From the NCBI RefSeq assembly GCF_002854065.1, contig NZ_CP024147.1: 64,000 nt of DNA. One strand, 5' to 3'. The position numbers and the translations under genes are program-made. Of this stretch, positions 3,432-60,304 are shown in pieces. Position 1 is the first letter of the stretch, and each line of letters starts with the position of its first letter. Under the pieces are notes generated by a model. It saw only the letters and a program-made list of their open reading frames with translations, made no database searches and was not told the origin of the DNA. The stretch is from Escherichia coli (lineage in GTDB: Bacteria; Pseudomonadota; Gammaproteobacteria; Enterobacterales; Enterobacteriaceae).

Positions 3432-4370
3432 TCAGTTAAAAGGTTGTAAGTCGACGCGCGCCATCATTGCGGCCAACTGCGGACGATCGGTAATACCCAC
3501 ATTGCTTTGACTTACCGCCAGGGCTGCAACAGCAGTCGCCAGACGCAGTGTGTGTTCACTGGATTCACGCATTAGCAAGCCATAAATCAGGCCACCAACC
3601 ATAGAATCCCCTGCGCCAACGGTGCTTACGACATCGACTGACGGTGGTTTGGCGATCCATTCGCCGGAGGCATTAACCCAAAGCGCGCCTTCGGCACCCA
3701 GTGAAATAACGACATGCGCAATACCTTGTTCACGCAGCGCATGCGCAGCTTCAATCACATCTTTCATTTCAGGCAGTTTACGGCCTGCCCAGATTTCCAG
3801 CTCGCGGCGGTTAGGTTTCACCAGCCACGGTGCCGCTTTCAAACCTGCTACTAACGCTTCACGGCTACTATCAAAGATAATGCAAGGGCACTGACTACGC
3901 AGGCGAGTCATCCAGTCGGTGAACGCTTCCGGGCTGACGCCTGACGGTAAGCTTCCGCTGACACAGACCATATCGAACTGACCGAGCCAGCTCAGAGAAT
4001 CAGTCACAAAGCGTTCCCAGTCGGCGGGAGTGACTTCAAAACCCGAGAAGTTGAAGTCGGTCACTTCGCCGTCTTTTTCCGTCAGCTTAACGTTAATTCG
4101 GGTGCGCCCCTGTACAACCTGGAAACGGTTGGCAATGCCCAGCTCGCTGAACAGTTGCTGAAAACCATCCTGATTGTCTTTACCGAGGAAGCCGCCAACG
4201 GTGACATCAATTCCCAGGTCTTTCAATACTTTGGCCACGTTGATGCCTTTACCCGCCGCATGCAGACCGGTGGTTTTCACCAGGTTCACTTCGCCGCGTT
4301 CAATTTCCGGGCAGAAACCAACAAGGTCATAAGCCGGATTAAGGGTGATAGTAGCAACACGTCTGCTCAT
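3432..4370 (-). CDS. fruK: 1-phosphofructokinase
   Basis: 312-aa PfkB-family ORF between fruB and fruA; start abuts the fruB stop. Confidence 0.93.
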   Translation of the reverse strand: MSRRVATITLNPAYDLVGFCPEIERGEVNLVKTTGLHAAGKGINVAKVLKDLGIDVTVGGFLGKDNQDGFQQLFSELGIANRFQVVQGRTRINVKLTEKDGEVTDFNFSGFEVTPADWERFVTDSLSWLGQFDMVCVSGSLPSGVSPEAFTDWMTRLRSQCPCIIFDSSREALVAGLKAAPWLVKPNRRELEIWAGRKLPEMKDVIEAAHALREQGIAHVVISLGAEGALWVNASGEWIAKPPSVDVVSTVGAGDSMVGGLIYGLLMRESSEHTLRLATAVAALAVSQSNVGITDRPQLAAMMARVDLQPFN

Positions 4371-5500
4371 TATGCGCCCTCCCCAAGACCAGCAGCGATA
4401 GCGTCGCCGATTGCTTTCAGCGCCTGTTCAGCATCTGCACCCTGGGCGGTAAAGCGTAGGCGATGACCTTTCTTAACGCCAAGTGCCACAACTTTCATCA
4501 GACTACGTCCGTTTGCCGGTTTGCCGGTGCCATCAAGGTTTGTCACGGTAATATCACTGTTAAATTGTTTAATGGTGTTGACCAGCATGGTACCTGGACG
4601 AGCATGCAGGCCGTGTTCATTGCGCACCACAAACTCCGCGCTTAACACGTCGTCGGTCGGCGCATCATCGCTGGTCAGCAGCGCCAGCAACGTTGCCGCA
4701 TCCGCTTTCAGCAAGCGGTCAGCTTTATTGTCGAGCAACAAATCAGCGAGACGCTTAAGAACCGCAATGGGCTGATCGTCATTCATCGCCACACTCACCA
4801 GCATGGCTGCCGTTTCGCCGTCCACATCAAAAGCATTTGCCGCACGGCTTACCGCAATCGCGCTACGCAGATTGCCTTCGGCGCTATCGCTCAGCCAGAT
4901 ACCCTGTCCGAGATTCAGCGGTTGTTCATTGATGGCTTTGGTGACGAAAGAGGCGTCAACTGCCCCCGCCTCTTTCAGACGCGCAGCGTTCAGCGCCTGA
5001 AGAGTCAGCAGATCGCTGGCGACGATATCCAGCGTCAGCATTTCGTTGTCGAGCTTCAACTGCTCACTCTGCTTTTCGCCCATCAGCAATGCGCGAAGTT
5101 CTTCTGCTGTTGTTGCTGACTTCAGTTGTTCAGCAACGGAATCATCGCTCAGTACGTGGGTCAGCTGGCGTAGCAGGCCCAGATGCTCATCCGAGCTGGC
5201 AGCAATACCGATCGCTACGTACGCTACCTGACCGTCACCCCAAGTGACGCCTTCCGGGAACTGAAATACCTGAACGCCGGTTTTCAGCACCTGATCGCGG
5301 GTGTCGGTAGTGCCGTGTGGAATAGCAATACCATTGCCGAGGAACGTTGAGGTTTGCTGTTCGCGCGCCAGCATGCCATTGACGTAGCCTTCTGCTACAT
5401 TACCGGCCTGCACCAGCGCCGCAGCGACCTGGCGAATCGCCTCTTCTTTGTCTCCGGCCTTTTCGCCCGGATGGATGTCCTGTACGGATAACTGGAACAT
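4370..5500 (-). CDS. fruB: PTS fructose-specific EIIA / FPr fusion protein
   Basis: 376-aa ORF, first gene of fruBKA; Cra operator motif about 90 bp upstream. Confidence 0.93.
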
Positions 5501-5586
5501 AGTTCTCCTCTCTTGCTGAATTGAAACGATTCAGCTTCTATGAGAAAAAAAGCGCCAACCTGGCTTAGGGTTAAAGACAAGATCGC

Positions 5587-5602
5587 GCTGAAACGTTTCA
5601 AG
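5587..5602 (-). promoter_or_regulatory. Cra (FruR) operator in the fruB promoter
   Basis: Perfect palindrome TGAAACGTTTCA at 5589-5600 (GCTGAAACGTTTCA 5587-5600), matching the Cra consensus core, about 90 bp upstream of fruB ATG; a second half-site-like GCTGAAACAG (reverse complement) at 5617-5626. Confidence 0.7.
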
Positions 5603-5867
5603 AAAGCATAATACTTCTGTTTCAGCACGCAAGGAAAGCCGTAAAGTTATGAGCAAAAGTTTGATGTGCTGCACAATTTTTTGTCATTTTTCCTAATTGC
5701 TGATGGGAAAATCCGTTATCAGCAATTTCATTTCAGCAGCGTCAGCAGCCAATCAGCAACAGTGAAATGGCATTTTGATTATTCGTGGCGCTTTTGATTT
5801 CGCTGTCTGTTTATTTTCTGACAAGCAGCGTAAACTCCGCGTCTTCCTCTTCCAGTGATCGACCAGC

Positions 5868-7049
5868 ATGCATAACTCCCCCGCAGTCTCCAGCGCGAAA
5901 TCGTTTGACCTGACCTCGACGGCGTTTTTAATCGTTGCCTTTCTCACCGGTATTGCGGGCGCTCTGCAAACCCCGACACTCAGTATTTTTCTTACCGATG
6001 AAGTACATGCCCGTCCGGCGATGGTGGGATTCTTCTTTACCGGCAGCGTTGTCATTGGGATTCTGGTGAGTCAGTTTCTCGCCGGGCGCTCTGATAAGCG
6101 CGGCGATCGCAAATCGCTGATTGTCTTTTGCTGCCTGTTAGGCGTGCTGGCCTGCACCCTTTTTGCCTGGAATCGCAACTACTTTGTTTTGCTATTCGTT
6201 GGCGTCTTTCTTAGCAGCTTTGGCTCGACCGCTAACCCGCAAATGTTTGCCCTTGCCCGTGAACATGCCGACAAAACCGGACGTGAGGCGGTGATGTTCA
6301 GCTCTTTTTTACGCGCTCAGGTTTCACTGGCATGGGTCATTGGCCCACCGCTGGCTTATGCCTTAGCGATGGGTTTCAGCTTTACGGTAATGTATCTGAG
6401 CGCAGCGGTAGCGTTTATTGTTTGCGGCGTGATGGTGTGGCTGTTTTTACCGTCGATGCAAAAAGAGCTTCCGCTGGCGACCGGCACGGTTGAAGCGCCG
6501 CGCCGTAACCGTCGCGATACGCTGCTGCTGTTTGTCATTTGTACATTGATGTGGGGCTCGAACAGTCTGTACATCATCAACATGCCGCTATTTATAATCA
6601 ACGAACTGCATCTTCCCGAGAAACTGGCCGGTGTGATGATGGGGACCGCCGCCGGGCTGGAAATCCCGACCATGTTGATTGCCGGATATTTTGCCAAACG
6701 TCTGGGTAAGAGTTTCTTAATGCGCGTTGCTGCCGTGGGTGGCGTCTGTTTTTACGCAGGAATGCTGATGGCGCATTCTCCTGTCATTCTGTTGGGCTTG
6801 CAGCTGCTAAATGCTATTTTTATTGGCATTCTGGGCGGTATCGGGATGCTCTATTTTCAGGATTTGATGCCCGGTCAGGCAGGTTCAGCCACCACGCTCT
6901 ATACCAACACGTCGCGCGTGGGCTGGATCATCGCAGGATCTGTGGCGGGCATCGTCGCCGAGATCTGGAATTATCACGCTGTGTTCTGGTTTGCGATGGT
7001 GATGATTATCGCCACTCTGTTTTGCTTACTGCGGATTAAAGATGTTTAA
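5868..7049 (+). CDS. setB: Sugar efflux transporter B (MFS)
   Basis: 393-aa polytopic membrane ORF divergent from fruB; matches SetB as recalled. Confidence 0.9.
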
Positions 7050-24823: not shown

Positions 24824-24851
24824 AAAAAACCCCGCTCCGGCGGGGTTTTTT
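24824..24851 (+). terminator. Intrinsic terminator after rplY
   Basis: aaaaaaccccgc - tccgg - cggggtttttt: GC-rich stem followed by T-run. Confidence 0.75.
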
Positions 24852-24887: not shown

Positions 24888-24920
24888 TTTTTGCAGGCCA
24901 GATAAGGCGTTCACGCCGCA
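24888..24920. repeat. Single REP-like palindromic element
   Basis: gccagataaggcgttcacgccgcatctggc: imperfect palindrome resembling REP units, between the rplY terminator and the yejK 3' end. Confidence 0.5.
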
Positions 24921-24945
24921 TCTGGCATTCAGAACACAAAGCCGA

Positions 24946-26381: not shown

Positions 26382-28142
26382 ATGGTAACTCATCGTCAGC
26401 GCTACCGTGAAAAAGTCTCCCAGATGGTCAGTTGGGGGCACTGGTTTGCACTGTTCAATATTCTGCTTTCGCTCGTCATTGGCAGCCGTTACCTGTTTAT
26501 CGCCGACTGGCCGACCACGCTTGCTGGTCGCATTTATTCCTACGTAAGCATTATCGGCCATTTCAGCTTCCTGGTGTTCGCCGCCTACTTGCTGATCCTC
26601 TTCCCGCTGACCTTTATCGTCGGCTCCCAGAGGCTGATGAGGTTTTTGTCCGTCATTCTGGCAACGGCGGGAATGACGCTATTACTGATCGATAGCGAAG
26701 TCTTTACTCGTTTCCATCTCCATCTTAATCCCATCGTCTGGCAACTGGTTATCAACCCAGACGAAAATGAGATGGCGCGCGACTGGCAGCTGATGTTCAT
26801 CAGCGTGCCGGTTATTTTATTGCTTGAACTGGTGTTTGCGACGTGGAGCTGGCAAAAGCTGCGCAGCCTGACGCGTCGTCGACGCTTCGCGCGCCCGCTG
26901 GCCGCATTCTTATTTATCGCCTTTATCGCCTCGCATGTGGTGTATATCTGGGCCGATGCCAACTTCTATCGCCCTATCACCATGCAGCGCGCTAACCTGC
27001 CGCTTTCGTACCCGATGACGGCGCGACGTTTTCTTGAGAAGCATGGCCTGCTTGATGCGCAGGAGTATCAACGCCGTCTTATTGAGCAAGGTAATCCAGA
27101 CGCCGTTTCCGTTCAGTATCCGTTAAGCGAACTGCGCTATCGCGATATGGGCACCGGGCAGAATGTGCTGTTGATTACTGTCGATGGCCTGAACTACTCA
27201 CGCTTCGAGAAGCAGATGCCTGCGCTGGCAGGTTTTGCTGAGCAAAATATTTCGTTCACGCGCCATATGAGCTCCGGCAACACTACAGACAACGGCATCT
27301 TTGGCCTGTTCTATGGCATCTCGCCAAGCTATATGGACGGCATTCTGTCGACCCGTACGCCTGCGGCATTAATTACTGCGCTTAATCAGCAAGGCTATCA
27401 GCTGGGGTTATTCTCATCAGATGGCTTTACCAGCCCGCTGTATCGCCAGGCATTGTTGTCAGATTTCTCGATGCCGAGCGTACGCACCCAATCCGACGAG
27501 CAGACCGCCACGCAGTGGATCAACTGGCTGGGACGCTACGCACAAGAAGATAACCGCTGGTTCTCGTGGGTCTCTTTCAATGGTACTAACATTGACGACA
27601 GCAATCAGCAGGCATTTGCACGGAAATATAGCCGGGCGGCAGGCAATGTCGATGACCAGATCAACCGCGTGCTCAATACACTGCGTGATTCTGGCAAACT
27701 GGACAATACGGTGGTGATTATCACTGCCGGTCGGGGTATTCCACTGAGCGAAGAGGAAGAAACCTTTGACTGGTCCCACGGTCATCTGCAGGTGCCATTA
27801 GTGATTCACTGGCCAGGCACGCCGGCGCAGCGTATTAATGCGCTGACTGATCATACCGATCTGATGACGACGCTGATGCAACGCCTGCTACATGTCAGCA
27901 CACCTGCCAGCGAATATTCGCAAGGTCAGGATTTGTTCAACCCTCAACGCCGTCATTACTGGGTTACCGCAGCGGATAACGATACGCTGGCAATTACCAC
28001 CCCGAAAAAGACGCTGGTGCTGAACAATAACGGTAAATACCGCACTTACAACTTACGTGGTGAAAGAGTGAAAGATGAAAAACCACAGTTAAGTTTGTTA
28101 TTGCAAGTGCTGACAGACGAGAAGCGTTTTATCGCTAACTGA
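26382..28142 (+). CDS. yejM: Inner membrane protein YejM/PbgA/LapC (5 TM + periplasmic sulfatase-like domain)
   Basis: 586-aa ORF with N-terminal TM segments; matches YejM as recalled; proL tRNA immediately downstream. Confidence 0.92.
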   Translation: MVTHRQRYREKVSQMVSWGHWFALFNILLSLVIGSRYLFIADWPTTLAGRIYSYVSIIGHFSFLVFAAYLLILFPLTFIVGSQRLMRFLSVILATAGMTLLLIDSEVFTRFHLHLNPIVWQLVINPDENEMARDWQLMFISVPVILLLELVFATWSWQKLRSLTRRRRFARPLAAFLFIAFIASHVVYIWADANFYRPITMQRANLPLSYPMTARRFLEKHGLLDAQEYQRRLIEQGNPDAVSVQYPLSELRYRDMGTGQNVLLITVDGLNYSRFEKQMPALAGFAEQNISFTRHMSSGNTTDNGIFGLFYGISPSYMDGILSTRTPAALITALNQQGYQLGLFSSDGFTSPLYRQALLSDFSMPSVRTQSDEQTATQWINWLGRYAQEDNRWFSWVSFNGTNIDDSNQQAFARKYSRAAGNVDDQINRVLNTLRDSGKLDNTVVIITAGRGIPLSEEEETFDWSHGHLQVPLVIHWPGTPAQRINALTDHTDLMTTLMQRLLHVSTPASEYSQGQDLFNPQRRHYWVTAADNDTLAITTPKKTLVLNNNGKYRTYNLRGERVKDEKPQLSLLLQVLTDEKRFIAN

Positions 28143-28216
28143 TTAATTATAAATCAGTTAGCGAAATATCTTACTTGCAATCGGTGTGGAAAACGGTAGT
28201 ATTAACAGCCACGAGT

Positions 28217-28293: not shown

Positions 28294-28303
28294 AAAATCC
28301 CAA

Positions 28304-28333
28304 AAAAAACCAACCGTAAAGGTTGGTTTTTTT
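28304..28333 (+). terminator. Intrinsic terminator after proL
   Basis: aaccaacc - gtaaa - ggttggtt followed by TTTTT. Confidence 0.75.
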
Positions 28334-44127: not shown

Positions 44128-44235
44128 ATTGACCTTCCATCATTAACGCGCTCTGAAAATTGAGAGCGACCAAATAAACCGCATAATTAATAAGCCATTT
44201 TTATAGCCGCTAAGATATTAAAGGATGTGTCAAAG

Positions 44236-44400
44236 ATGCATACCCCGATCGAGGTAAAACCTGTAGCAGGATCAAAAGAGTGGCGGGAAGCGTGGCAAAA
44301 ACGGGCTTTTGCTCACATTTCAAATGGTTATAAATATATTTATATAGCGATTAATTCACCAGAGATATTTCTGCTGGTTTGTTCTCTCATCAGAATTTAA
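44236..44400 (+). CDS. yojO: Small ORF (54 aa), candidate YojO
   Basis: ATG 44236 to TAA 44398-44400 encodes MHTPIEVKPVAGSKEWREAWQKRAFAHISNGYKYIYIAINSPEIFLLVCSLIRI; below the ORF-track cutoff; overlaps the napF regulatory sites, so coding status is uncertain. Confidence 0.4.
   Translation: MHTPIEVKPVAGSKEWREAWQKRAFAHISNGYKYIYIAINSPEIFLLVCSLIRI
44241..44256 (-). promoter_or_regulatory. NarL/NarP 7-2-7 heptamer pair in the napF control region
   Basis: TACCCCG-AT-CGAGGTA: two inverted TACYYMT-like heptamers with 2-bp spacing, about 115-130 bp upstream of napF ATG. Confidence 0.6.
44262..44275 (-). promoter_or_regulatory. Putative FNR site upstream of napF
   Basis: Minus-strand TTGAT-CCTG-CTACA: one perfect FNR half-site, centred 20 bp upstream of the NarP site, as expected for the napF promoter architecture; second half-site poor. 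Confidence 0.4.
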
Positions 44401-44533
44401 CACTAAAAGAGCAGGTAAAATTGTCTGAATATTCTTTAAGTTATTCATAAAGCAAATTAATAAATCTGATGAATATGTTAACCTTCAGCGACATCATCGG
44501 TGCAAACCTATAAATGAAGAAGGAAAGCAAAAA

Positions 44534-45022
44534 ATGAAGACCATTCTACCTGCAGTATTGTTTGCCGCTTTCGCCACCACTTCCGCCTGGGCGGCAGAGA
44601 GCGTCCAGCCACTGGAAAAAATCGCGCCTTATCCACAAGCTGAAAAAGGCATGAAGCGTCAGGTGATTCAGTTAACCCCGCAAGAAGATGAATCTACCCT
44701 GAAAGTAGAACTGTTAATCGGTCAGACGCTGGAAGTCGATTGCAATTTTCATCGTCTCGGCGGGAAGCTGGAAAGCAAAACGCTGGAAGGCTGGGGCTAT
44801 GATTATTATGTCTTTGATAAAGTTAGCTCGCCGGTTTCCACGATGATGGCCTGCCCGGATGGCAAGAAAGAGAAGAAATTTGTCACCGCGTATCTGGGCG
44901 ATGCTGGAATGCTGCGTTACAACAGCAAGCTGCCGATCGTGGTGTATACGCCAGACAATGTAGATGTGAAGTACCGCGTCTGGAAGGCGGAAGAGAAAAT
45001 TGACAACGCGGTAGTTCGCTAA
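44534..45022 (+). CDS. eco: Ecotin (periplasmic serine protease inhibitor)
   Basis: 162-aa ORF with signal peptide; matches ecotin as recalled. Confidence 0.95.
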
Positions 45023-45028
45023 ACTGCC

Positions 45029-45395
45029 GTGAAGTGCGGCACCCCGTAGGTTGGATAAAGCGGTCACGCCGCATCCGACATCTAACGCCCGAGCCGGTTG
45101 CCTGATGCGACGCTGACGCGTGTTATCAGGCCTACACCGCTGTGAAGTGCTCCACCCCGTAGGTCGGATAAGGCGGTTACGCCGCATCCGACATCCAACG
45201 TCCGAGCCGGTTGCCTGATGCGACGCTGACGCGTCTTATCAGGCCTACACCGCTGTGAAGTGCGGCACCCCATAGGTTGGATAAGGCGGTTACGCCGCAT
45301 CCGACATCCAACGCCCGAGCCGGTTGCCTGATGCGACGCTGGCGCGTCTTATCAGCATACGCCACATCCGGCATACCATGCCGGATGTGGCACAT
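45029..45395. repeat. BIME/REP array: three tandem 113-bp units plus a terminal perfect hairpin
   Basis: Unit starts at 45029, 45142 and 45255 (period 113), each carrying two REP-like palindromes; followed by perfect 14-bp inverted repeat gccacatccggcat/atgccggatgtggc (45361-45391) abutting the mqo stop. Confidence 0.85.
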
Positions 45396-45397
45396 CA

Positions 45398-47056
<1,659 letters not shown>

Positions 47057-47261
47057 TTACTTTTAGTCGCTTTATTGCAGGTGAGATTTGCGCGGCATCA
47101 ACGGTAACACTTAAGTAACAACATTTAAATAATGTTTATAAATTATATTCTAATTTTAGAAACATTATAATTTCGTTGATTAATTATAGGGTTATTAGAA
47201 ATGAAGGGATTTTTAGCATATTGACCTGGCGGCAGCAGTCCGCCAGGTCAGCGTCGTAATA

Positions 47262-48905
47262 TTATGCCGTCCGGGCAACGGCATCACGCGAAGCGGCATC
47301 GCGCTCTTCGCCCGTCAGCTCGCTAAGTTGCCCGTTGCGCATCTCCAGCAGGCGGTCGGCGTGGATAAAGTAATGATCATCATGACTGATGGCGAAAATA
47401 GTTTTACCCATCTCCTGCATCAGCGGCAGCAACACCTGATAAAACTCACGACGGAAGTGTGGATCCTGATCCGCCGCCCATTCATCCAGCAGGATAATAT
47501 CGCGTTCTTCTGCCAGCGCCAGCAACAGCGCCACGCGTTTTTTCTGCCCTTTTGATAACTTCAGGTTAACAATACGCCCGTTGCTTAACTCAAGCTTATG
47601 AGCCATTTTCAGCTGCGCCAGCCACTTCTCAACCAGTTGCGGGTTAGCGGGTTTACCCTCCGGCCCCAGCAGTTGATCAAACAGCCAGACATCGGTAAAC
47701 ACTGCCGAAAACAGTTTGCGATAATCTTCCGGTTGTTCGCCGCTGACAGGTTTGCCATCCAGCAAGATTTCGCCGCTTTGTGGCTGATACAAGCCCGTCA
47801 ACAACATCGCCAGCGTCGATTTTCCGCTACCGTTGCCGCCAATCAGAAACAGCAGCTCGCCACGTTTGATGGTGAGATTAATCGGACCAACGGAAAACGC
47901 GTTATCCTGATAAGCAAACGTCACGTTACGCAGCTCCAGCGTTTGCCAGTTGGGAAACGCCTGCGGGCGCGGAAACTCTGCTTTGAAAGGCGCGAGCGCG
48001 AATTTGTTCAGCTTGTTAAACGCCACCTGCGCCGTCAGCAGCGTCGGCAATGCGCCAACCGCCGAAAGCAGCGGCGTACGCAGGAATAAAAGCGTCAACG
48101 AATAGGTCGCGGCAACGTTGGTATCAGCCCAACCGAGGCTGTTCGCCATCCAGAACACCAGGCCGATTGCGCCCAGCATCATGATGTTTGACCAGTTCAC
48201 GGCACTAAGATGGAAGGTGTCTGCGCGAATAATATGATGGCGATACTCTTGCGCATCAGGAATGTAGAGGTTGTTAAACACATACTCGGCGCGTTCCCGG
48301 TTCAGAGTCAGCTCTTTGCGCCCTTCAAGTACAGTTTGAAAATCCGTGTACAGCTTGTCTTCGGTTTCACGCAGGGTCGCCATATGTTTGTACACCCGCG
48401 CCACCAGCACAAAACCGCCCCAGATGGTGATCGCCATCCAGATAGCCGTTACCAGCAACATTTTGCCCGACAGCATCCACAGATACGCCGCAGAACCGAT
48501 AGTGAGAATGATCCCCTGCACCAGTTCCGGCAGACGCACAAAAGCAATGGTGATATTACGCACATCGCTGGTTAATCCCGCCAGCAACGAGGCGCTACCG
48601 AGTTGTTCAATGCGCTCGACGTGAGTATCCAGAATCCGCTTGATAAATTCACTACGCAGTCGGTAAACGAAGTGATGCCCCAAAGTGGTGAGCGCCAGTT
48701 GCGATCCGAGAGTGACTGCCATCAACAGCAGCAATAATCCCAGAAACTCCGGCAACACCAGCAGACTGGTATCCGCCGTTTCGATAAGGCGCTGATTGAT
48801 AAAAGCAATTAAGCCAATGCCTAAAGCCGCACTGGCGAGGCTTAGCGCCATCACACTGATAAATGGCCAGCGATACTGCCGCCAGACAAGTACAAGAAGT
48901 TCCAT
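47262..48905 (-). CDS. yojI: ABC transporter (fused permease/ATPase), microcin J25 efflux
   Basis: 547-aa ORF with N-terminal TM domain and C-terminal ATPase (GGNGSGKST); matches YojI as recalled. Confidence 0.9.
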
Positions 48906-57147: not shown

Positions 57148-57462
57148 GTAGGCCAGATAAGACGCGTTAGTGTCTTATCTGGCATTTGCACCGATTGCCG
57201 GATGCGGCGTAAACGCCTTATCCGTCCTACGATTCCCATTATTTCAACAGATTACATTAAAGTAGGCCAGATAAGACGCGTCAGCGTCGCATCTGGCATT
57301 TGCACTGAATGCCAGATGCGGCGTAAACGCCTTATCCGTCCTACGATTCCCATTATTTCAACAGATTACATTAAAGTAGGCCAGATAAGACGCGTCAGCG
57401 TCGCATCTGGCATTTGCACTGAATGCCAGATGCGGCGTAAACGCCTTATCCGTCCTACGAAT
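57148..57462. repeat. BIME/REP array: three tandem 114-bp units between convergent rcsB and rcsC
   Basis: Unit starts at 57148, 57262 and 57376 (period 114), each carrying REP-like palindromes (gccagataagacgcg...cgcatctggc and gccagatgcggcgtaaacgccttatcc); last unit runs into the rcsC stop codon. Confidence 0.85.
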
Positions 57463-60304
57463 CCCGCGATTTCCTGACCCTCTCGGCATATACCGTCAGC
57501 GTCTGTTTTATCACATCCAGCGTTACCGGCTTCGACAGGCAGCTGTCCATACCGGACTCCAGACACCGCTGCTTCTCTTCAGCCAACGCATTAGCAGTTA
57601 CTCCGATTACCGGCAACGTCAGTCCCAACTGACGAATGCGTTGCGTCAAGCGGTAACCATCCATATTTGGCATGTTGACGTCGCTAAGCACGATATCAAT
57701 ATGATTCTTGCTAAGTACATTAAGCGCATCGACGCCATCATTCGCGGTTTTACATTGATAGCCCAACGATCCCAACTGATCTGCCAGCAGACGTCGGTTA
57801 ATCGGATGATCATCCACGACCAGAATCATCATATCGTCATTATCGCTGACCGCTTTGTCCGTCGACGGCAGAGCGTTAGCAGGATCGTCGCTCTCCATCT
57901 CGATCAAATAAATACGCGCCAACAATGCCGGTAGCTCATGCGGAGCAGCCACACTGTGTACCCACTCCCCTGGCGCTTTCTCCAGCGGAATACCAATATG
58001 TCGACGACAGAAGGTCACTACCGCTCTGCCCTGCCATTTTTTACTCACTACCTCGTCAGTGATTAACACATCTTCGGGAGTCGGTTCCTGCCCTTCGTAT
58101 GTTGTAACGACGATGCCGCTGCGCTGCAAACTGGTTTCCAGGAACTGACAGAGCGACGCATTGCGGACCGCCAGCCAGCAGCGTTTACCACTCAGCCCTT
58201 CCACGCCTTTTTTCTGCGGGTACTGAGCGCCGTACAACGGAATACGCACGGTAAACTGGCTGCCCATTCCCGGTTCTGAATCTACCGAGATGTCGCCGTC
58301 CATCATGCTGATCAGTTTTTCACAAATCGCCAGACCCAGACCGGTCCCCTGGAAGTTTCGCTGTACGCCCGTTCCGACCTGGAAGAAGGGATCAAACAAG
58401 CGCACCACTTCTTTCGCCGGAATCCCCACGCCGGTATCGCGAACACGGATAGAGAGATAATCGCCATCAGCGCGGACATGCAAAACTATACAGCCGGTAT
58501 CAGTGAATTTTATGGCGTTACTCAACAGGTTGGAGATGACCTGCTGTAAACGCATCGGGTCGCCATTTAAAGCCACTGGCACATCCGGTTCAATAAAGCA
58601 GTACAAGCCTAACTGCTTGCGTACCACCAGCGGTAAATAGTTGGCGGTGATGTGGTTCATCACTTCACGCGGTGAAAACTCACGCGGTTCGATCTTCAAC
58701 TGTTCCGATTCAATCTTCGAGAAATCGAGAATATCGCTGATAATTTTCAACAACAGGCTGGAAGAGTTGTTCATTGCCGTCACCAGACGATCGACGCCTT
58801 TCGGTAACTCTTTGGTTTGCAACAGATCCAGGTTACCGATAATGCCATACAGCGGCGTTCGCAGCTCATGACTGACGGTGGCAAGGAACATCGATTTTGA
58901 CTGGCTCGCCTGTTCCGCTGCTTGTGCCATCTCCTGCAACGACTCTTCCATCTTCACGCGCGAAGAAACATCCACCAGCACACAAATGGCCACGTTTTCA
59001 TTACGATAGCGCGAATGGACGAAGCTGATTTGCAGATTGGTATTGTTGCTGGTCAGGACATCAACAAAATTGACCTGCTGCCCACAGATAATTTGTGTCA
59101 GCCGTTGGCGGTCCTCATGCGTAAGCATATTGAGATAGGTATGCGCCAGTTCGTTACTTAAAATATTGACGCCATCTGCGGTACGCAAAATACAGATACC
59201 CACTGGCGCGGAGGCGACAATCTTGCGGTTAAACTGCTCATGTTCTTCCAGTCGCAGGGCATCGCTTTCCGCCGGAATGAAAATACGCCGCTCGTACATC
59301 CGCGCGAGAGTAAACAATGCAGCTCCAGCAAGCACATTCAGCAAAATTGCGTTAAGGATCAACATGCGAATGCGTTCCAGCACCTTATCAACCGGCACCG
59401 AATAAACGATGCTTAGCGATGAGGGAGGCAGATTTTTCTTCAGCACCAGCTCCCGGAAACCTTCCGTATAGCCAAACCAGGAGCGTTCCTGCATCCAGCG
59501 AGGATCGCCCTTAATTTTGCTTTCTGGTCCGGTAAGCGAAATCAGGGTATGACCATTTTCATCAAGAATGGTAACCCCCATCGGCAACGTACCCGGTAAG
59601 AAAAAATTCTCCATCCGGATGGTCTGCTCGACACCCAAAAGCGCCTGCAACCTGTTCGCCAGATAAACTGGCGTCAACGCGTAAAAATACCCGACGCCAG
59701 GGCGCGGACCTTCGCTGATCCAGTAGAGGTTACTGCCGCTATCATCTTGTGGTGCATTTCGATATTTATTGATGCGTTCATGCAACGCTTTCAACGCGGT
59801 ATCGCGTTCCACTGGCATATCACGCAGACCGAAATTGGCCATGCAGAGGTTATCGCTGCCGATTAAAAATACCCGGTTGAGATCGTAAGCCGCAGAAAAA
59901 TTATCGCGCCAGTAGCGCATAAACCACGCCAATGACTCCAGAGAACCTCGCCAGGTGTTACTCATTGCGGAACAATCGGAGTCGGCAAACAGCGGTTCAA
60001 ACGCAGGCACATCCGCCTGCGTTTCTCGTCCACGCGGGGAAAGCACACCGTTTTCTGCCGATAAGCGATTTTCAGCGATGTACTTCAGCTCTTTCATCAC
60101 ATCAGAGGTGCGTTGAATAAAGCGCTGAGCCTGATCGGAACTCAGATTAAATTCCTGACGAATTTCCGATTCTCGCTGATGTAACGCATTAACGATGTAA
60201 AAAACGGATGAAAAAGCAATCAACAGCCAGAGCACTAACGCCAATGCTCTGAACATGTAGCGCGAGGCTTTCAGGGTTGTACGAAAAGAAGCAAGGTATT
60301 TCAA
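57455..60304 (-). CDS. rcsC: Hybrid sensor histidine kinase RcsC
   Basis: 949-aa ORF with N-terminal TM/periplasmic domain, HisKA/HATPase core and C-terminal receiver domain. Confidence 0.93.
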   Translation of the reverse strand: MKYLASFRTTLKASRYMFRALALVLWLLIAFSSVFYIVNALHQRESEIRQEFNLSSDQAQRFIQRTSDVMKELKYIAENRLSAENGVLSPRGRETQADVPAFEPLFADSDCSAMSNTWRGSLESLAWFMRYWRDNFSAAYDLNRVFLIGSDNLCMANFGLRDMPVERDTALKALHERINKYRNAPQDDSGSNLYWISEGPRPGVGYFYALTPVYLANRLQALLGVEQTIRMENFFLPGTLPMGVTILDENGHTLISLTGPESKIKGDPRWMQERSWFGYTEGFRELVLKKNLPPSSLSIVYSVPVDKVLERIRMLILNAILLNVLAGAALFTLARMYERRIFIPAESDALRLEEHEQFNRKIVASAPVGICILRTADGVNILSNELAHTYLNMLTHEDRQRLTQIICGQQVNFVDVLTSNNTNLQISFVHSRYRNENVAICVLVDVSSRVKMEESLQEMAQAAEQASQSKSMFLATVSHELRTPLYGIIGNLDLLQTKELPKGVDRLVTAMNNSSSLLLKIISDILDFSKIESEQLKIEPREFSPREVMNHITANYLPLVVRKQLGLYCFIEPDVPVALNGDPMRLQQVISNLLSNAIKFTDTGCIVLHVRADGDYLSIRVRDTGVGIPAKEVVRLFDPFFQVGTGVQRNFQGTGLGLAICEKLISMMDGDISVDSEPGMGSQFTVRIPLYGAQYPQKKGVEGLSGKRCWLAVRNASLCQFLETSLQRSGIVVTTYEGQEPTPEDVLITDEVVSKKWQGRAVVTFCRRHIGIPLEKAPGEWVHSVAAPHELPALLARIYLIEMESDDPANALPSTDKAVSDNDDMMILVVDDHPINRRLLADQLGSLGYQCKTANDGVDALNVLSKNHIDIVLSDVNMPNMDGYRLTQRIRQLGLTLPVIGVTANALAEEKQRCLESGMDSCLSKPVTLDVIKQTLTVYAERVRKSRDS

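Follow-up and report, generated by a model that had tools for sequence, protein, structure and literature searches.

The spacer between the convergent genes eco and mqo in the 64-kb stretch of Escherichia coli DNA that was analysed (the window) contains a BIME-2 tandem array that is followed by a perfect hairpin next to the mqo stop codon. Very probably, the array is orthologous to REP161 of E. coli K-12, its stack of hairpins provides both mRNAs with their 3′ ends, its y REPs are bound by gyrase, and the number of its units changes by recombination or amplification. The anatomy, family membership, polymorphism and evolutionary origin of the array were established from the comparisons presented below. 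By analogy, the K-12 findings on 3′ ends, Rho and gyrase should also hold in a strain with three units, where polymerase pausing, termination and trimming would follow each other in that order. Both the eco–mqo BIME-2 and its terminal hairpin are already known from the K-12 literature; the observation is real but ordinary.

Anatomy of the array

The window agrees at 100% identity with E. coli PapRG-06-5, a strain from a baboon, and the RefSeq annotation used below is that of this strain. The coding sequences of eco and mqo are separated by 375 bp in the window. The features of the locus, together with a second array used for comparison, are as follows.

44534–45022, + strand, eco (ecotin) coding sequence, from the open reading frame list and the RefSeq annotation; its 3′ UTR extends into the array
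45029–45355, no strand assigned, BIME-2 tandem array, 2.9 units of 113 bp, from Tandem Repeats Finder, a repeat search and a listing of units
45046–45079, + strand, y-type REP of unit 1, pattern match with 1 mismatch
45100–45135, − strand, z2-type REP of unit 1, pattern match with 1 mismatch
45159–45192, + strand, y-type REP of unit 2, pattern match with 0 mismatches
45213–45248, − strand, z2-type REP of unit 2, pattern match with 0 mismatches
45272–45305, + strand, y-type REP of unit 3, GTAG changed to ATAG, pattern match with 1 mismatch
45326–45355, − strand, degenerate z2 REP of unit 3, from the inverted-repeat list and comparison with Escherichia sp. E1V33
45361–45391, no strand assigned, terminal perfect hairpin of 14 bp with a 3-nt loop, from an inverted-repeat search and folding; orthologue of the K-12 eco:mqo overlapping bidirectional terminator
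45398–47044, − strand, mqo (malate:quinone oxidoreductase) coding sequence, from the open reading frame list and the RefSeq annotation; stop codon at 45398–45400
57148–57465, no strand assigned, rcsB–rcsC BIME-2 array, period 114, 2.8 copies

A preliminary description of this DNA proposed three tandem 113-bp units that begin at 45029, 45142 and 45255, each with two REP-like palindromes. Tandem Repeats Finder identified a repeat with a period of 113, 2.9 copies, 93% matches, no indels and a score of 584, and a repeat search returned three 113-nt copies at exactly those starts with spacings of 113 and 113. The periodicity is thus as proposed, but the third unit is incomplete, with a z2 REP that has no CTAC tail and a y REP that begins with ATAG. 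The 113-bp unit is composed of a 34-nt y REP, a 20-nt head-to-head linker, a 36-nt z2 REP and a 23-nt tail-to-tail linker. On the + strand, the y REP has its GTAG 5′ of the palindrome, and the z2 REP is inverted, with CTAC at its 3′ end. The expected y and z2 palindromes are found in each unit, the z2 of the third being degenerate: its palindrome is retained and its GGCCTAC tail has become CATAC with loss of the CTAC, a tail that is intact in Escherichia sp. E1V33. The two-base stem mismatch (AA versus GC) is present in all six REPs, four of which also carry the GTAG. No match to the y or z2 pattern arose in 100 shuffles of the sequence. All six y REPs of K-12 retain GTAG, as opposed to the ATAG at position 45272 in unit 3 of the window; GTAG is reported to be required for TnpA-REP binding (Ton-Hoang 2012).

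As RNA, the array folds better than shuffled sequences in both the eco sense (z = −6.6) and the mqo sense (z = −4.6). The + strand also resembles the Rfam family naRNA4 (RF02564), a model built on the y and z2 unit of REP325. With a gathering score of 59.5 bits, units 2 and 3 pass (75.3 and 60.5 bits, respectively) and unit 1 falls just under it (56.2 bits). A protein-coding repeat was ruled out, as 113 is not divisible by three and the open reading frames of 72–73 amino acids that cross the array are mechanical.

Family membership and related arrays

BIME-2 elements are defined by y and z2 REPs in inverse orientation that occur as tandem copies, the number of which varies among strains (Ton-Hoang et al. 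2012). The eco–mqo array has each of these properties: it is built from y and z2 REPs, the REPs alternate in inverted orientation across a short linker, the copies are in tandem, and copy number is variable. The array is a BIME-2, which makes the earlier assignment to the BIMEs both correct and more specific. BIME-1, which combines z1 REPs with a long L linker that holds an IHF site, was ruled out because the palindromes fit the 36-nt z2 pattern, the linker is 20 nt, and no IHF consensus occurs in 45029–45395. Across all 64 kb of the window, the IHF consensus WATCARNNNNTTR was counted 13 times where 4.4 would be expected; none of 100 shuffles reached 13, and none of the occurrences is in the array. 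The RRS elements, 222-bp GC-rich repeats near the same map position (PMC10592627), were also rejected as a match, their sites being at lysO and dusC.

From its sequence and flanking genes, the array is the orthologue of REP161, the name given to the eco–mqo array of K-12 in the Harris et al. 2026 supplement. REP161 of K-12 MG1655 shares the flanking genes, the 113-bp unit of y and z2 REPs, and the core of the terminal hairpin. The two differ in size, with 5.9 units in a 714-bp spacer in K-12 compared to 2.9 units in 375 bp in the window, and in the stem of the terminal hairpin, which is described below.

Two other BIME-2 arrays provide some contrast. REP325/naRNA4, located between yjdM and yjdN and the source of RF02564, likewise repeats y and z2 REPs in tandem, but it has a period of 100 bp, other linkers, co-directional genes belonging to one operon, and no perfect hairpin at its end. 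The array between rcsB and rcsC in the window, REP162 in K-12, is a y and z2 tandem array of 2.8 units between convergent genes. It differs from the eco–mqo array in its period of 114 bp, its linkers and its REP variants, which are of the GCCAGATG type. The preliminary description had considered the two arrays to be different in sequence; this applies to the linkers and not to the REPs, which are of the same y and z2 types. Within the rcsB–rcsC array, 13-bp perfect head-to-head hairpins occur at 57288–57320 and 57402–57434. In the K-12 orthologue, two SEnd-seq overlap sites are listed (Harris 2026 supplement) and a Rho region lies antisense to rcsB (Adams 2021). A solitary y-like REP with three mismatches to the pattern was also found at 24893–24926 of the window.

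The terminal hairpin

The arms of the terminal hairpin, 45361–45374 and 45378–45391, are each 14 nt in length, 3 nt apart, and 100% complementary. This recount bears out the perfect 14-bp hairpin and 3-nt loop that had been described, and no other perfect hairpin in the 64-kb window is as long; perfect hairpins with arms of at least 12 nt were absent from 20 mononucleotide shuffles. The arm ATGCCGGATGTGGC is found only here within the window. Six nucleotides (45392–45397) separate the hairpin from mqo and the stop codon starts at the seventh, in agreement with the distance of 7 nt given previously. The reported lack of a U-run was confirmed for both strands, and a canonical terminator scan of 44200–47400 found no terminator-like site with a T-run in the eco–mqo spacer. 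By comparison, canonical bidirectional intrinsic terminators consisting of an A-run, GC stem and T-run occur elsewhere in the window at 28303–28333 and 24824–24851. A perfect 13-bp palindrome with an AT-only centre of 7 nt, TCGCTAACTGATTAATTATAAATCAGTTAGCGA, at 28132–28164 resembles a site for protein binding more than it does a terminator.

The hairpin is the most conserved part of the eco–mqo spacer. Of 5426 E. coli genomes, 5405 contain a single copy of a 65-mer centred on it, and in 2005 of these the copy is identical to the window sequence. From this single-copy occurrence, a perfect stem and the absence of GTAG on either side, the hairpin itself was ruled out as a REP.

The stem differs somewhat from one haplotype to another. 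The K-12 haplotype forms 18 perfect pairs. In the window, where two bases on the mqo side are substituted, the eco-sense RNA keeps 14 perfect pairs, whereas in the mqo-sense RNA two G·U pairs allow the stem to extend to 18 pairs (45357–45395). The stem has a calculated energy of −27.8 kcal/mol as eco-sense RNA and −29.2 kcal/mol as mqo-sense RNA. In one strain, a G-C pair is regained through a change on the opposite arm. A common class of haplotypes, with one mismatch to the window, has the loop-closing pair opened and a 13-bp stem, and a BL21-like class contains a 2-nt bulge in the stem. Over six haplotypes, 95.4% of cells are paired in the mqo sense and 86.1% in the eco sense; since shuffle controls were non-significant (155/500 and 196/500), the bias toward mqo-sense pairing is only a hint. 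In E. coli O9:H10 Res13-Lact-PEB21-38-A, a deletion fuses the last z2 REP to the hairpin (CCTGATAAGACGCCACATCC), which results in a spacer of 354 bp that is off the 113-bp ladder.

Origin of the hairpin

For comparison, mqo loci were fetched from other species. The mqo–eco spacer is very short in Enterobacter soli, E. quasihormaechei, Leclercia, Pseudenterobacter and two Citrobacter species, and there it holds a canonical bidirectional intrinsic terminator with an A-run, GC stem and T-run. In further Citrobacter species, the spacer carries one or two REP-like hairpins instead. In E. whittamii and E. albertii, a complete y REP is located at the position of the 3′ arm of the E. coli hairpin, and in E. 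coli and Escherichia sp. E1V33 approximately 45 nt between two GCGGCGTA direct repeats are missing. From the complete y REP in the former and the deletion in the latter, it follows that the 3′ arm of the hairpin is the 5′ half of a y REP. The same arm pairs imperfectly with the sequence adjacent to the mqo stop codon in E. whittamii and perfectly in E. coli; at one pair, the two species differ by a compensatory A-U to G-C change. In the genome recorded as E. coli SCPM-O-B-8794 (4145–4300 of the fetched locus), mqo ends with TGA, a truncated y REP comes directly after it, and the terminal hairpin is absent. This genome, a separate species representative, may belong to a cryptic Escherichia clade.

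A more extended reading of these comparisons is offered tentatively, with the chances against it in its entirety. The hairpin would be a domesticated REP fragment, assembled from the 5′ half of a y REP through the GCGGCGTA deletion and from an inverted copy by the mqo stop codon, that took the place of the ancestral bidirectional intrinsic terminator. Selection would have acted on the mqo-sense RNA, because the substitutions keep pairing by means of G·U in that strand only, and the array would tune only the 3′ UTR of eco and the local gyrase load.

Copy-number polymorphism

When the flanks alone (700 + 700 nt) were used as the query, the two were joined in 5372 of 5426 complete E. coli genomes. 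Unit number was then taken from spacer length in 59 genomes spaced evenly down the ranking, with the following distribution.

1 unit, 34 of 59 genomes, for example O157:H7 and UTI89
3 units, 2 of 59 genomes, including the window
4 units, 1 of 59 genomes
5 units, 4 of 59 genomes
6 units, 13 of 59 genomes, for example K-12
7 units, 5 of 59 genomes, for example BL21

This comparison of copy number, which the preliminary description had called for, thus gave a range of 1 to 7 units, and no genome with 0 or 2 units was present among the 59 sampled. In K-12, unit 1 is identical in sequence to unit 2 and unit 3 to unit 5, which points to recent duplication. The single unit of O157 corresponds to the 5′ part of unit 1 of the window joined to the 3′ part of unit 3. 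In terms of sequence, these patterns are what in-register unequal recombination or amplification would give. Since most of the sampled strains have one unit, extra units are probably not needed for the formation of 3′ ends. In one strain, E. coli 2017-02-2CC (NZ_AP027764.1), the gene for an IS110-family IS621 transposase lies inside the array (5004–5984 of the fetched locus) and the spacer is 1768 bp. This insertion fits the reported use of REPs as targets by insertion sequences.

Proposed formation of transcript 3′ ends

The bidirectional-terminator table in the Harris 2026 supplement corresponds to the SEnd-seq set of Ju et al. 2019. Row 365 of the table of overlapping bidirectional terminators lists eco:mqo as a convergent pair at K-12 positions 2305063–2305108 (Harris et al. 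2026 supplement file 2), with the overlap detected in log phase only. Its stem, AUACGCCACAUCCGGCAU, has 18 pairs with a 3-nt loop and an energy of −33.4 kcal/mol, and the listed site overlaps REP161 by 9 nt (Harris et al. 2026). The locus in the window resembles this SEnd-seq class, for which a collision model has been proposed, in that a stable hairpin without flanking U-tracts lies in the overlap of a convergent pair and the K-12 orthologue is listed. It differs in that the hairpin ends a repeat array, and its membership in the class is by orthology only. For bidirectional terminators of convergent genes in general, an RNA hairpin is needed to position the collisions between RNA polymerases.

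Further K-12 data concern Rho. A Rho termination region has been mapped to 2304374 on the minus strand, antisense to the 3′ end of eco, with a Rho score of 4.64 and a significance of 1.5e-5 (Adams et al. 2021). This is where mqo-sense read-through exits the array at its eco end. The window sequence at the corresponding position contains 31 C and 21 G in 100 nt. In the same study, the curated list of Term-seq 3′ ends has no entry for eco or mqo (Adams 2021). Rho-dependent transcripts are trimmed by PNPase and RNase II to stable stem-loops that have no U-tracts (Dar and Sorek 2018). REP325, a sister BIME-2, acts as a partly Rho-dependent attenuator or terminator and as a stabiliser of the upstream mRNA, and REPs between convergent genes are associated with higher expression of both genes.

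Taken with these data, the stable stack of hairpins, and chiefly the perfect terminal hairpin by the mqo stop codon, would make the 3′ ends of both mRNAs. RNA polymerases arriving from either direction may pause at the hairpin. Their release would come from collisions, either head-on or trailing, or from Rho further downstream. Exonucleases acting in the 3′-to-5′ direction would then trim the transcripts back to the hairpin, which would shield the message. As a result, the mqo 3′ UTR is predicted to be constant and short, approximately 45 nt, and to end at the hairpin. The eco 3′ UTR would span the whole array and lengthen from approximately 150 nt to approximately 830 nt with rising unit number. 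At the level of DNA, the y REPs would serve as strong sites for gyrase binding and cleavage, and unit number may change by in-register unequal recombination or by amplification that depends on a REP-associated transposase. The suggestion that the structure acts as a 3′ stabiliser or terminator for eco and mqo is thus supported, by analogy, by data from K-12, where the array has 6 units and the stem 18 bp.

Other proposed roles for the array and hairpin

A different explanation of the 3′ ends, that the hairpin is a canonical Rho-independent terminator, can scarcely be correct. The stem is indeed strong and GC-rich, but neither strand has the T-run, and a true canonical terminator is found at the same position in other genera and is missing from the eco–mqo spacer of the window. 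The role of the locus as a gyrase site is documented for K-12 and goes beyond the RNA-level reading of the preliminary description. Under four Topo-Seq conditions, the K-12 BIME-2 designated 'eco>-<mqo' gave 11, 7, 2 and 5 gyrase cleavage sites (Sutormin et al. 2019), and six in vivo gyrase cuts at the eco–mqo BIME-2 are attributed to Espeli and Boccard 1997, as noted in Sutormin et al. 2019. According to the same work, y REPs are favoured by gyrase, and blocking transcription raises the signal at BIME-2 (Sutormin et al. 2019). Given that BIME-2 has also been reported as a barrier to supercoil diffusion, the selected function could lie mainly in the DNA, with the array serving as a strong gyrase site, or as a topological insulator, to take up the positive supercoils that accumulate between convergent eco and mqo, and with effects on RNA being secondary. 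This is possible but on balance doubtful, as the most conserved part of the spacer is the terminal hairpin, which is not a REP and which is the site of the mapped RNA 3′ end in K-12, and one unit is enough in most strains. The RNA and DNA roles are not mutually exclusive. A third proposal, in which each unit would code for a small RNA like naRNA4 with a role in HU binding and nucleoid condensation, draws on the two of three units that score above the gathering score of RF02564 and on the HU-binding naRNAs described from REP325 (Qian 2015). It is very unlikely to apply here. The Rfam match reflects only the common y and z2 palindromes; REP325 has a period of 100 bp and other linkers. Moreover, REP325/naRNA4 produced no measurable chromosome compaction and REP–REP contacts were absent (Harris 2026), so that the nucleoid claim is largely refuted for REP325 itself.

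The two remaining proposals concern the consequences of the hairpin for Mqo and of the extra units for the host. With a stem that begins 2 to 6 nt past the mqo stop codon, a terminating ribosome would have to melt the hairpin, and Mqo synthesis could be lowered through stalling, mRNA cleavage and tmRNA tagging. REPs less than 16 nt from a stop codon have these effects and reduce translation, according to the summary of Liang, Rudd and Deutscher 2015 given in PMC12306157. The eco–mqo hairpin is not a canonical REP, however, and the reading is extended to mqo only by analogy; it is considered unlikely. There is an appreciable chance, although short of even, that the extra units amount to selfish or neutral DNA. 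Amplification of REP doublets would be due to the REP-associated tyrosine transposase or to slippage, the copies would be tolerated in a permissive spacer, and only the part nearest the hairpin would be useful to the host. One unit is the most frequent state in a range of 1 to 7, identical neighbouring units indicate recent duplication, and the strain with IS621 in the array has kept its flanking genes. In addition, TnpA-REP cleaves and recombines BIMEs in vitro and models for their amplification exist (Ton-Hoang 2012). Against this proposal, zero-unit genomes are absent among the 59 sampled, gyrase cuts in K-12 scale with unit number, and the partial Rho dependence of REP325 requires the full array. 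The reading preferred here remains the combined one, in which the hairpin stack would form the 3′ ends of both mRNAs and the y REPs would recruit gyrase.

Significance

Studies of gyrase have used the eco–mqo BIME-2 as a model target since 1997, and finding it in the window matters little as a discovery. The additions made here are minor and consist of the distribution of unit number, the single-copy conservation of the hairpin, the descent of one arm from half a y REP, and the substitution of this structure for an ancestral canonical bidirectional terminator. With the last two in mind, the locus may be considered a worked example of how a canonical bidirectional terminator is replaced by a REP-derived structure. 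Furthermore, the alleles with 1, 3, 4, 5, 6 and 7 units and a constant hairpin form a natural series, and an isogenic comparison of them could separate the RNA-level from the DNA-level roles of BIME-2.
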